Origin: Candidatus Wirthbacteria bacterium
GTDB lineage: Bacteria; Patescibacteriota; CG2-30-54-11
NCBI GenBank assembly: GCA_903889905.1
Contig: CAISZI010000028.1
Span: 4,156-68,155, forward strand
Length of the DNA stretch: 64,000 bases
Reading direction: 5' to 3'
Position numbers and translations under genes: made by a program. This document shows, piece by piece, positions 21,315 to 25,221 of the stretch. The notes beneath the pieces are model-generated. The model was not told where the DNA came from. It did no database searches and saw only the letters and a list, made by a program, of their open reading frames with translations. Position 1 is the first letter of the stretch. Each line of letters starts with the position of its first letter.

Positions 21315-21349
21315 GTCATTGCGAGGAGTCCCCGACGTGGCAATCTCTC
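21315..21349 (+). repeat. Dispersed short repeat, copy A (GTCATTGCGAG-GAGTCCCCGAC-GTGGCAATCTCTC)
   Basis: Member of a six-copy family with conserved termini GTCATTGCGAG and G(Y)GGCAATCT(Y)TC and a variable internal mini-hairpin (GTC-ccc-GAC). It lies between tgt and the GIY-YIG gene. Confidence 0.8.
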
Positions 21350-21640
21350 CTAAATCTCCTCATACAAATCCTTCCAATTCGTGTTTGTAGAAATAATCAT
21401 ATCAACTTTCTTTTCTCTTGAACCAGCCTTAATCTGCTTCTCTCTCATAATTGCCATTTCAACATCATCAAAAACCTCAAAATAAACCAAACGACTAACG
21501 TTATATCGGGAAGTAAAACTCGCCACGAGCTTTTCTCTGTGCTCGTAGACTCGACGCTTCAAATCATTGGTAACGCCGGTATTAATAACTGTACGAGCGG
21601 GGTTGGTCAAAAGATAAACATAATATTGACGGTCTTCCAT
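21350..21640 (-). CDS. GIY-YIG nuclease-superfamily small protein (YhbQ/UPF0213-like)
   Basis: MEDRQYYVYLLTNPARTVINTGVTNDLKRRVYEHREK carries the GIY...YIG-type motif (YVYLL...GVTNDLKRRVYEH). Confidence 0.7.
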   Translation of the reverse strand: MEDRQYYVYLLTNPARTVINTGVTNDLKRRVYEHREKLVASFTSRYNVSRLVYFEVFDDVEMAIMREKQIKAGSREKKVDMIISTNTNWKDLYEEI

Positions 21641-21663
21641 TATTGGACTCCAAAATCAAGAAA

Positions 21664-21702
21664 GAGAGATTGCCGCGCCCCGCTGACGGGACTCGCAATG
21701 AC
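21664..21702 (-). repeat. Dispersed short repeat, copy C (reverse orientation)
   Basis: gagagattgccgcgccccgctgacgggactcgcaatgac; the reverse complement is GTCATTGCGAG-TCCCGTCAGCGGGGC-GCGGCAATCTCTC, with an internal hairpin CCCG-tcag-CGGG. Confidence 0.8.
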
Positions 21703-21714
21703 AGACACGAATGC

Positions 21715-23022: not shown

Positions 23023-23320
23023 GGTTTGATTGCCTTGGTAAAATTGAAGCAGAAGTCCTCTGTAATGATATTCGGCGTCGAGCCGTGCTTCGCGCAAGCG
23101 AACTAGTTACAGAGGGCTTACTGTATTCAGATCAAATTTATGCTTGGAATTGTAATAATTTTTCCCATCGGCATAGTTAGATTTAGGCGCGTTTGACACT
23201 CTAAAGATTACCTTGATAAGATACTATCACAAAGATCCATTTTCCGAACTGTCACCGTAAGGTGGCGTGCCTGGGAGACACCAGGAGTAGGAAATGGATC
23301 GTTTTTTATACAGATGACAA

Positions 23321-25165
23321 TCATTTCTTCTCCCCCATCTTCACAAACAACGCGATCGCCACGCCGGCCTGGATGTCGAAGACGTTTTCGTCTTTGGAGC
23401 CGTCCGGGCATTTTTCTTTCTTGAGACTGTTGCCGTGCAGGTTGAGAATGTAGAGCTCGTCAAAACTCGTCATCAAGGACTGGCGCATACCGCGGAAGGT
23501 AGGGTTGTCTAGGTAGCTGTGGTTGGTAATAAAGCCAAGGATGCCTTCCCCGGCTTGGTCAATCTTCCACTGCGCGAAGCGGATGAATTTGACGTAGTCG
23601 TCCTGCAGCCACTTGGGATTGCGTTCGTTGAGTGAATGCCCATCAACCTGAAAATATTCCCGGATTTCCTTGGCAATCCACTCGCCATTGTTGTCGGAAT
23701 GACCGGAATACGGCGGATTGCCCATCACGACCATGATCGGGATTTCGCGCTTCACTTTGCCGGCAAGCTCGGACTCATGCGACAGTGACGTGAGGCCAGG
23801 TAAGGCAGATTGCTCGAGATCTTTCCATTCCAGCGTATTGGTGAGGTAAAGCTGGAACCGTTCATCATCCTTGAGCCGGTAGCCAAGTTCATCAAAGGTA
23901 ATCCCCGCCTTGAGATGCCCCACCGCATACGGCGCCATCATCAGTTCAAAGGCGAAGAAGTGCTTCAGGATGTGGTCATGAATCAAACTCGAAACCCCAC
24001 CGCTTCCATACTTGTTCTTGTATTCCTCTACCGCAAGGCGGATGGCGGCAACCGGAAAAGTAATGGTTCCGGCTGCTGGGTCTAGCACCGTCACAGTGTC
24101 GGAAGCAAACCCGTCAGCGCGGCCAAACCGGGTTTTGAGCAGGTGATGGATGGAACGCGTAATGTATGAAACAACCGGTTCCGGCGTGTAATAAACGCCA
24201 CGTTTTTCCCGTTCTTTGGGGTCGTATTCTGACAAAAACGTTTCGTAGAAATGAATAACCGGGTCGCGGCCTTTGCCTTCCTGATAGAAATTGTTGATGA
24301 TTTTATTGACGTCGCAATTGGCCAGTACTTCGGCGATATCATCGATGATCCATTCCATGTTGGGCGGCAAATCACCCAGTGAAATAAACTTGAACACGTC
24401 GCGCAAAATGCCGATGGTGTGCGGAATAAACTGGTAAGCCAGTGGACGGTTGAATTCCTTGTTTGCCCGGGTGCGCGCGGCAAACAATCCGTAAGTGATC
24501 GTCTGGGCAAACAAATTGGCAAAATCCTGTACCGTGAGTGTTGACAACAAGTGTTGCTTGAAGGCTTCCAAAAATGCTTCCAGAGTCTGCGTGCCCTCAA
24601 TTTTCTCTTCTTTCATTTCCTCGGCAATCACATTGTCGCGCAAAAACCGCGTGCGTTTGGCCAATTCGGTGGCGAGCTGTTTGGCGGTGAAGGTGCGGGG
24701 AATCGAAAAGGAAAAAAACTGGTCCAGTAGCTGACCAAATTCAGTTTCATTTTCCACCGGCGGCACAGCTTTGAGCTGTTGCAGGACAAACGGCCGGCCG
24801 ACCTCGGTTTTGGCAATCAACACGCCATTGCGGTACAGACGGAATTCCAGAAAATTGGTCAAGATCAAATTGGGAAAAGTCTGCCGATAACGCTTGAGTT
24901 GCTCGGATTCGGCAATCTCATCCAAATTCCCAACCGTCGGCGCCTTGGCTTCGATGTAACCGACGATTTTACTTTTGCCGTCCCAAATACGGAAATCGGG
25001 ATTGCCACCTTCGGTCTTGCGTGGCAACGTGATGACATCAAACTGCTTGTTCTGGTTTTGAATCCATAGCTTGAGCAGTTGTTTGAGGTCAGAATAAAAA
25101 CTCTCCTCCCGTGCGTCACCGTGCAGGCTGGTGGTATGAAGGGATTTGAGATAGTCAAAAAGCAT
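23321..25165 (-). CDS. MmeI-like Type IIG restriction-modification enzyme, N-terminal part: PD-ExK nuclease domain plus gamma-class N6-adenine methyltransferase (NPPY)
   Basis: The N-terminal PD-(D/E)xK-like motif is GNPDFRIWDG...IVGYIEAKAP. Methyltransferase motif I is VLDPAAGTITF and motif IV is MVVMGNPPYSGHS. The downstream region LGFITNHSYLDNPTFRGMRQSL...NVFDIQAGVAIALF is typical of Type IIG/ISP gamma-methyltransferases. Confidence 0.7.
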   Translation of the reverse strand: MLFDYLKSLHTTSLHGDAREESFYSDLKQLLKLWIQNQNKQFDVITLPRKTEGGNPDFRIWDGKSKIVGYIEAKAPTVGNLDEIAESEQLKRYRQTFPNLILTNFLEFRLYRNGVLIAKTEVGRPFVLQQLKAVPPVENETEFGQLLDQFFSFSIPRTFTAKQLATELAKRTRFLRDNVIAEEMKEEKIEGTQTLEAFLEAFKQHLLSTLTVQDFANLFAQTITYGLFAARTRANKEFNRPLAYQFIPHTIGILRDVFKFISLGDLPPNMEWIIDDIAEVLANCDVNKIINNFYQEGKGRDPVIHFYETFLSEYDPKEREKRGVYYTPEPVVSYITRSIHHLLKTRFGRADGFASDTVTVLDPAAGTITFPVAAIRLAVEEYKNKYGSGGVSSLIHDHILKHFFAFELMMAPYAVGHLKAGITFDELGYRLKDDERFQLYLTNTLEWKDLEQSALPGLTSLSHESELAGKVKREIPIMVVMGNPPYSGHSDNNGEWIAKEIREYFQVDGHSLNERNPKWLQDDYVKFIRFAQWKIDQAGEGILGFITNHSYLDNPTFRGMRQSLMTSFDELYILNLHGNSLKKEKCPDGSKDENVFDIQAGVAIALFVKMGEKK

Positions 25166-25184
25166 TTAAGACCTTATGAAGAAA

Positions 25185-25221
25185 GAGAGATTGCCGCGGT
25201 CGAGGACTCACTCGCAATGAC
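25185..25221 (-). repeat. Dispersed short repeat, copy D (reverse orientation)
   Basis: gagagattgccgcggtcgaggactcactcgcaatgac; the reverse complement is GTCATTGCGAG-TGAGTCCTCGAC-CGCGGCAATCTCTC. It lies between the RM gene start and the ruvB stop. Confidence 0.8.

Follow-up and report, generated by a model that had tools for sequence, protein, structure and literature searches.

What are the short hairpin-like repeats that recur between the genes of Candidatus Wirthbacteria bacterium, and what is their relation to the small GIY-YIG gene that is enclosed by two of them? The stretch analyzed here, referred to as the window, comprises 64,000 nucleotides (nt) of one contig (assembly GCA_903889905.1, contig CAISZI010000028.1, positions 4,156 to 68,155 of the forward strand), and all coordinates given below count from its first letter. 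In an initial annotation, made from the letters alone, six dispersed repeats of 31–39 bp with conserved termini and a variable palindromic centre were noticed at gene boundaries and compared with REP, RPE and MITE families or, alternatively, with a regulatory or RNA-processing site. Our analysis suggests that the repeats, of which there are eight, are very probably hairpins of the type of the Ssn-related motifs (SRM) and the NTS repeats, i.e., members of the superfamily of CGTC-tagged repetitive extragenic palindromes (REPs), and that the gene at 21350–21640 on the minus strand very probably encodes their cognate nuclease for single-stranded DNA (ssDNA), an enzyme of the Ssn family, forming together with its two flanking copies an SRM-ssn-SRM unit.

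The existence of a dispersed family is supported by the pattern GTCATTGCGAG-N(6,16)-GGCAATCTYTC, which matches five times in the window with none expected from 100 dinucleotide-preserving shuffles, and the sixth of the copies reported earlier, 21664–21702 (−), is evident in the sequence. The internal spacing N(6,16) proposed in the initial annotation fits these five copies and fails for the sixth, the centre of which has 17 nt and is one base too long; the coordinates given there hold overall, apart from two ends that were off by one (22268, not 22269, and 63060, not 63059). Reading of the spacers beside the reported copies added two further ones, 29413–29462 (+) and 62994–63030 (+), resulting in eight copies of the ATTGC-stem repeat in 64 kb. 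A loose finder accepting any 5-bp stem returned exactly eight matches with an ATTGC stem in the window. Its 27 further matches have unrelated stems and are mostly coding, and about 12 chance matches in total are expected from shuffled sequence, a level that is somewhat exceeded.

Two of the copies form the arms of a cassette. The downstream arm, TGTCATTGCGAG-GAGTCCCCGACGT-GGCAATCTCTC at 21314–21349 (+), borders directly on the GIY-YIG stop codon, and the upstream arm, TGTCATTGCGAG-TCCCGTCAGCGGGGCGC-GGCAATCTCTC at 21664–21703 (−), lies inverted to it, 23 nt upstream of the ATG start codon, so placed that both tags point outward from the enclosed gene. Two inverted pairs show the same relative orientation of their arms as the cassette. 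In the first, between tpiA and secG, the added copy 29413–29462 (+), with a TATC tag, a 33-nt centre and a CTAG tail, is the left arm and is separated by 11 bp from the right arm at 29474–29509 (−). In the second, between purM and purN, the added copy TATCATTGCGAA-TCCTGTTTCGGGATGT-GGCAATCTAG at 62994–63030 (+) is the left arm and lies 29 bp from the right arm at 63060–63090 (−), which has the shortest centre of all copies (CCATGCGC). These pairs are gene-less versions of the repeat-gene-repeat unit. A single copy is found at 25185–25222 (−) in the spacer between the stop codon of ruvB and the start of the N-terminal open reading frame (ORF) of a Type-ISP-like restriction-modification (RM) gene, and the last one, 22233–22268 (+), lies inside the C-terminal ORF of the same RM gene. 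Seven of the eight copies are located in short spacers 3′ of ORFs, four of them oriented one way relative to transcription and four the other way when the intragenic copy is counted as well. The neighbouring genes named in the initial annotation, tgt, the GIY-YIG gene, the Type-ISP-like RM gene, ruvB, secG, tpiA, purN and purM, were all upheld by domain matches (TGT, GIY-YIG, Type_ISP_C, N6_Mtase/Eco57I, RuvB, SecG, TIM, formyl transferase and AIR synthase). The placement at gene boundaries holds for the copies in spacers, with the copy 22233–22268 lying inside the RM ORF 21715–23097 (−) and being translated through.

Read 5′ to 3′ on its own strand, each copy consists of a tag, the ATTGC arm, the trinucleotide GAG, a centre, G(T/C)G, the GCAAT arm, a C and finally T(C/T)TC or TAG. 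The tag is (C/T)GTC in six of the eight copies and ATC in the other two, the 3′ C is present in all eight, and GAG is replaced by GAA or AAG in two divergent copies. Tag, stem and 3′ C are intact in six copies, and the centres between GAG and G(T/C)G are variable, with lengths of 8–29 nt; the variable distal part beyond the stem and the internal loop measures 12–33 nt.

Such elements have been described before. CGTC-tagged REPs were shown to carry a CGTC, TGTC or CCTC tag, AT at stem positions 1–2 and a 3-nt tail, with stems of 8–9 bp and loops of 4–5 nt, and to occur in five phyla mostly as inverted dimers and occasionally within genes; Neisseria dRS3 and Rickettsia RPE-4 and RPE-6 are counted among them (Di Nocera et al., BMC Genomics 2013, PMC3733652). 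The comparison with REP- and RPE-like families made in the initial annotation was therefore well chosen, since tag, AT-start of the stem, short tail and inverted dimers place the repeats of the window in this superfamily. For the CGTC-tagged REPs no associated enzyme was reported, and it was stated that they “apparently lack a dedicated transposase” (PMC3733652). For Neisseria meningitidis it was subsequently shown that SsnA, a GIY-YIG protein of 94 amino acids (aa), binds the NTS repeat, which contains dRS3 (Kd of the SsnA/NTS75 complex reported as 4.5 nM), that it does so with ssDNA only and not with double-stranded DNA (dsDNA), RNA or the reverse strand, and that it cuts a few nt upstream of the repeat (Chenal et al., Nat Commun 2025, PMC11893778). 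The three bases 5′ of the palindrome weigh most for cutting and the C 3′ of the palindrome weighs most for binding, the loop is dispensable and can be altered or replaced by extensions, and the substitutions Y6A, Y17A and E64A abolish cutting with binding being kept (PMC11893778). Homologs of ssnA are flanked across phyla by Ssn-related motifs, at least one in 71% and on both sides in 42%, and the system reduces transformation by NTS-bearing DNA; the authors liken NTS-ssnA-NTS to insertion sequences and to REP/RAYT and leave its role outside Neisseria open (PMC11893778). Our literature searches by repeat sequence and by GIY-YIG in combination with REPIN, RAYT or MITE found no description of the window repeats. 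The idea of an undescribed REP-like system was nevertheless dropped, since enzyme and hairpins are described in the 2025 Ssn paper (PMC11893778).

The enclosed gene (21350–21640, minus strand) encodes a single-domain protein of 96 aa, in which the Pfam family GIY-YIG (PF01541) spans residues 5–76 with an E-value of 1.3e-12 and leaves no second domain; NCBIfam contains no family for this protein or for the RM proteins. Compared with the NTS-flanked 94-aa ORF of N. gonorrhoeae, which judging from its size and its NTS flanks is presumably the ortholog of N. meningitidis NMV_0044 (SsnA), it shows 43.5% identity over 96% of the length with E 4e-18, well within the homology threshold used by Chenal et al. 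in 2025 (tblastn E < 1e-10). The alignment with the gonococcal protein shows that Y9, R30, H34, E67 and N86 are kept. More than 8000 homologs exist, and the 119 listed are mostly about 95 aa long, 62–73% identical and in many cases located on very short contigs, the nearest Ssn relatives belonging to the Chloroflexota and not to the Proteobacteria. The contigs of the close homologs are mostly 0.4–3 kb long, as expected if assemblies break at the flanking repeats. The gene is not phage- or plasmid-borne, because a search of 50,697 phage records gave no homolog and, among plasmids and chromids, no more than 33 records contain one.

The link between gene and repeat extends far beyond this organism. 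It was followed in 80 loci, one genome per species, that were chosen by protein alignment alone and cover about a dozen phyla (Chloroflexota, Cyanobacteria, Patescibacteria, Omnitrophota, Bacteroidota, Ignavibacteria, Planctomycetota, Nitrospirota, Proteobacteria and others). At least one ATTGC-type copy lies near the gene in 76 of them, and 33 of the 80 show exactly the layout of the window, a forward copy, the gene and a reverse copy. Forward copies reach a density of 1.84 per kb in the 500 bp upstream and reverse copies one of 2.26 per kb in the 500 bp downstream, compared with about 0.05 per kb further out; using the any-stem finder, ATTGC copies amount to 3.7 per kb within 400 bp of the gene and to 0.115 per kb beyond, an approximately 32-fold difference. 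Furthermore, the longer ORF calls of the listed homologs run into the DNA beside the gene, where they read VIASAAKQS, SRSEATKQS, ARNDT or SLAMT, i.e., translated repeat. In the reverse direction, at least 120 IMG/VR stretches (L170–L289, contigs classed as viral) carry the exact ATTGC pattern and an ssn homolog lay within only 1 of the 120 stretches covered; solo copies far outnumber the genes, and this reverse test says nothing on the mechanism.

Some cyanobacterial and Bacteroidota loci (L009, L073, L022 and L061) contain arrays of the repeat at regular spacing, with a period of about 89 bp in Roseofilum and of 160–200 bp in a Balneolaceae contig. The array copies share one orientation in L009, where the array extends from −504 to −144 relative to the gene, and in L073, and such arrays recall the mosaic clusters of Neisseria.

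More distant homologs with 41–57% identity, taken from annotated records of Planktothrix, Spirosoma, Shinella, Neisseria, Azospirillum, Sinorhizobium and Novosphingobium, have flanking hairpins that keep the layout and differ in their stems, which are again complementary. The flanking hairpins are GTCATTCTGAG..AGAATCTC and GTCATCCTGAA..AGGATCTC in Planktothrix, GTCATCCCGAGGAACGAGGGATC in Spirosoma, CGTCATCCTCGGGCTTGACCCGAGGATCC in Shinella, CCGTCATCCCCGCGAAGGCGGGGATCCAG in Azospirillum, with the gene located between sufB and sufC, and CCGTCATTCCCGCGCAGGCGGGAATCTAG in N. gonorrhoeae, the Neisseria flanks being the NTS/dRS3 sequence CGTCATTCCCGCGCAGGCGGGAATCTAG. This covariation was assessed without presupposing any pairing, taking all boxes near these genes that consist of [CT]GTC, an A and 4 further nt with a stem other than ATTGC. 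The own reverse complement followed by a C was found within 60 nt for 48 of 371 boxes, compared with a mean of 5.1 (maximum 16) for permuted stems, which shows that the arms of the basal stem truly pair and covary. In Azospirillum lipoferum 4B (AZO_p3, 1391–1900; L168), ssn is bordered left and right by an inverted pair of repeats and stands between sufB and sufC, which normally form a tight operon, and the unit looks like an insertion.

Base counts for the whole class, based on 303 ATTGC-class copies gathered without any constraint on the flanks, revealed G in 94% at position −3, T in 96% at −2, C in 94% at −1 and C in 94% at +1, with T in 66% at +2, C in 68% at +3, T or C at −4 and no conservation further out. 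The bases singled out by the mutagenesis of SsnA are the positions conserved to 94–96% in the ATTGC class. The interior behaves differently in that 328 copies contain 257 distinct centres of 10–60 nt with a tendency for self-complementarity. The internal loop of this 328-copy class has GAG on its 5′ side and on its 3′ side GAA in 74% and GTG or GCG, the type of the window, in 17%. In 37 of the 328 copies the centre contains GCGAAGC, known as the highly stable DNA mini-hairpin d(GCGAAGC); the copies of the window are without it.

By homology to N. meningitidis SsnA, a mechanism can be proposed in which the repeat would act only once the DNA becomes single-stranded, e.g., at replication forks, during repair or in incoming transforming DNA. 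The basal stem ATTGC/GCAAT of 5 bp would then close, and the protein would read this stem together with the unpaired 5′ (C/T)GTC tag and the 3′ C on the strand reading GTCATTGC. The tag-bearing strand itself would be cut a few nt 5′ of the tag, with the complementary strand of a copy being no substrate. The distal hairpin would remain unread and its length and sequence would be free to vary, which would explain the conserved termini with the variable centre. Binding and cutting in the organism of the window are what we infer from this comparison. Moreover, two features point to past mobility of the kind known for REPINs and insertion sequences, namely the in-frame insertion of 42 nt in the RM gene and the inverted pairs lacking a gene.

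Several observations weigh against the assignment to the Ssn system. The published SRM pattern HGTCWYN(0-2)YYVSBRHN(0-5)WNVSBRGN(0-2)RNCYNB, as implemented in this analysis, matches none of the eight copies of the window and no sequence in the vicinity of the gene at any of the 80 loci, whereas it recovers the Neisseria, Azospirillum and Shinella repeats that served as controls. The stem is short, with 5 bp, and leads into an internal loop whose sides are not complementary, and the single-strand folds of six of the eight copies are no better than those of shuffled sequence. Thermodynamic stability alone does not define the repeat, because only two copies fold more stably than shuffles, 21664–21703 (z −2.7) and 62994–63030 (z −2.6). 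The variable palindromic centre of the initial annotation accordingly holds in part: it applies to these two copies and to the family as a whole, in which 264 distinct centres reach −5.6 kcal/mol compared with −3.3 kcal/mol for shuffles (Wilcoxon p 7.5e-17), and it is weak for the three copies of the form GAGTC-nnn-GAC, which fold no better than shuffled sequence. Finally, the catalytic set Y6/Y17/E64 of the N. meningitidis enzyme is incomplete in the protein of the window. Y9 and E67 match Y6 and E64, and at the position of the catalytic Y17 stands Asn20, where a Tyr is found in all 119 others among the 120 best-scoring homologs and in all 11 co-aligned sequences including Neisseria. A sequencing error is unlikely, because at least one other short ENA contig (sample ERZ18626762) encodes the same protein sequence. 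Judged from these residues, the protein may bind without cutting, or it may have been inactivated recently.

The most serious qualification of the assignment follows the same line. The copies might be neutral fossils, spread by a once active Ssn enzyme of which the local representative is now dead, a possibility that we regard as unlikely and yet the strongest of the competing explanations. The replacement of the near-universal Tyr by Asn20 fits it, as Y17A abolishes cutting in N. meningitidis, and so do the two copies with a degenerate TATC tag and a CTAG tail and the fact that the RM gene holding the in-frame copy is itself split. On the other hand, the ORF is intact with 62–71% identity to its listed relatives and its remaining catalytic residues kept, tag, stem and 3′ C are perfect in six copies, the identical protein recurs on the ERZ18626762 contig, and another copy of ssn may exist outside the window.

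The copy inside the RM gene deserves a closer description in this respect. The RM ORF 21715–23097 (−) carries a 14-residue insertion, GEIATSETPRNDGG, corresponding to 42 nt at 22228–22269 in its Type_ISP_C part and containing the repeat 22233–22268 (+). This insertion is missing from all 14 aligned homologs (48–54% identity), and its excision results in a gap-free alignment. The gene is split into an N-terminal methylase ORF (23321–25165) and the C-terminal ORF (21715–23097), with about 220–250 nt in between (23098–23320). Because the gene is itself split, the in-frame state of the repeat may be luck and not the result of tolerance by a working protein. A metagenome scan with RuvB, sought for an empty-site comparison, resulted in relatives with at most 67% identity, none of them close enough to show presence or absence of a copy.

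The insert that splits the RM gene contains a strong match to the Rfam family DUF3800-IX RNA at 23234–23304 (+), on the strand opposite to the RM gene (61.3 bits, gathering score 36.8), and a promoter-like site TTGACA-18-TAAGAT (23193–23222) ends 12 nt upstream of it. No DUF3800 gene was noticed near this RNA match, the neighbouring ORFs not having been screened for that domain. A deltaproteobacterial homolog of the C-terminal RM protein (P0149) bears at its N-terminus a fused GIY-YIG domain that belongs to another subfamily (..YIGQTDDIKRRIDDH..). The fusion point is the split point of the RM gene of the window, and small elements may have landed repeatedly in this linker of Type-ISP genes. 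The ssn cassette of the window adjoins this Type-ISP-like RM gene (together 21315–25165), and on plasmid p1 of Planktothrix agardhii (L163) a cassette lies between an MmeI-type RM gene and the DISARM gene drmA. Restriction or defence neighbours in three unrelated cases (Planktothrix, the window and P0149) may be due to chance or may reflect a link between ssDNA nucleases and defence islands. Also in the window, an SSB protein is encoded at 18212–19162 (−) downstream of ribosomal protein S6; it has 316 aa with two SSB OB-fold matches and is about twice the usual length.

Considerably less probable than the fossil explanation, and in our view improbable, is a role at the level of RNA, in which the repeats would terminate transcription, stabilise mRNA as hairpins or serve as processing sites, without any connection to the GIY-YIG gene. 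Such a function would suit seven of the eight copies, which lie in short spacers following ORFs, and an action of this kind was proposed for REP-type elements (PMC3733652). Rfam shows no match to the repeat, neither in the whole window at the gathering score nor in the cassette at E ≤ 10, where none was meaningful, and in a search for terminator-like sites in 20800–30000 none of the six copies located there was flagged, with no T-run following any of them. Moreover, the orientations relative to transcription are evenly split, hairpin energies are mostly shuffle-like, the conserved unpaired GTC and the 3′ C are the bases read by an ssDNA nuclease, and SsnA binds neither RNA nor dsDNA. The regulatory or RNA-processing site considered in the initial annotation finds no support in these data.

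Very improbable is a classical REP/REPIN family mobilised by a RAYT, an IS200/IS605-type Y1 transposase. The general likeness, namely palindromes that are short and tagged, their inverted dimers and the enclosure of a small gene by two inverted copies, speaks for it, but the tag is (C/T)GTC and not GTAG, the enclosed gene belongs by Pfam to GIY-YIG and not to Y1_Tnp, no transposase has been tied to CGTC-tagged REPs (Di Nocera et al., PMC3733652), and the GIY-YIG link is present in 76 of the 80 loci. Tag and enclosed gene rule out a RAYT-type partner of the cassette, and the IS200/IS605 TnpA for which the initial annotation had suggested to look gives way to the Ssn homolog. Equally hard to credit are miniature transposable elements with inverted repeats (MITEs) derived from an insertion sequence with a DDE transposase, terminal inverted repeats and target-site duplications, for which the inverted pairs and the insertion within a gene might be quoted, since units of 31–50 bp are far below the usual MITE size, the flanks lack a consistent target-site duplication and are unconserved beyond −4 or +3, the unit is a tagged hairpin and not a pair of terminal repeats, and no transposase gene is adjacent.

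With the assignment to Ssn-type hairpins and their nuclease being retained, the kind of element is already known from the 2025 work on Ssn and SRM, and the picture of what these elements are is unchanged. What differs from the published system is the architecture of the hairpin, its escape from the search pattern, the phylogenetic range and the missing catalytic Tyr. In 2013, CGTC-tagged REPs stood without a dedicated enzyme, which was then supplied, mainly for Proteobacteria, by the Ssn paper in 2025; the window and the 80 loci show that the gene-plus-hairpin unit is dominant in Chloroflexota, Cyanobacteria, Patescibacteria, Omnitrophota, Bacteroidota and others in a form that evades the pattern and keeps the critical bases. 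For an enzyme family proposed as ssDNA tools, this provides a ready-made and differently shaped class of substrates. It also accounts for many spurious short metagenome ORFs that encode ..PRNDG.., ..SLAMT.. or ..EATKQS.. peptides, and the natural variant with Asn in place of Tyr offers a means to ask whether binding without cutting has a role. As a speculation, which taken in all its parts is rather doubtful, the ATTGC hairpin, with its 5-bp basal stem, its conserved, purine-rich internal loop and its unconstrained distal arm, might constitute a separate pan-bacterial class of Ssn sites that may explain many of the repeat-less Ssn homologs of the 2025 study; here it would form a domesticated pair with a nuclease-dead binder of ssDNA hairpins, and its copies would have spread by an Ssn-dependent, REPIN-like route, sometimes in frame.

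Compared with the known systems, the Rickettsia RPE elements resemble the window in that its 42-nt insertion keeps the reading frame of the host gene, and they differ in that only one of the eight window copies is intragenic and its host gene is already split by another insertion. REP/REPIN-RAYT systems share with the window a small single-copy nuclease gene inside inverted copies of its own ssDNA hairpin and many gene-less singlets and doublets. However, the RAYT enzymes have the HUH Y1 transposase fold and use a GTAG tag instead of GIY-YIG and CGTC, and strand-transfer chemistry is known for RAYT relatives and not for Ssn. The CGTC-tagged REPs are closer, having in common with the window the CGTC/TGTC tag, the AT-start of the stem, the short unpaired tail, inverted dimers and an in-frame copy in a gene; in contrast to their continuous 8–9-bp stem and 4–5-nt loop, the window repeats have an interrupted stem around a long and variable centre, and two copies enclose a GIY-YIG gene. 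The closest similarity is to Ssn/NTS of Neisseria. Both systems comprise a single-domain GIY-YIG protein of about 95 aa, the gene of which lies between inverted hairpin repeats, an unpaired HGTC tag, a stem starting with AT, a C directly after the palindrome and a free loop, as well as further intergenic copies that are dispersed and often arranged as inverted pairs. Differences concern the enzyme, which in the window is without the second catalytic Tyr, and the hairpin itself, as the class to which the window copies belong combines a 5-bp basal stem ATTGC/GCAAT with a conserved internal loop, in which GAG faces GAA, GTG or GCG, and with a distal mini-hairpin of 10–60 nt that is hypervariable.

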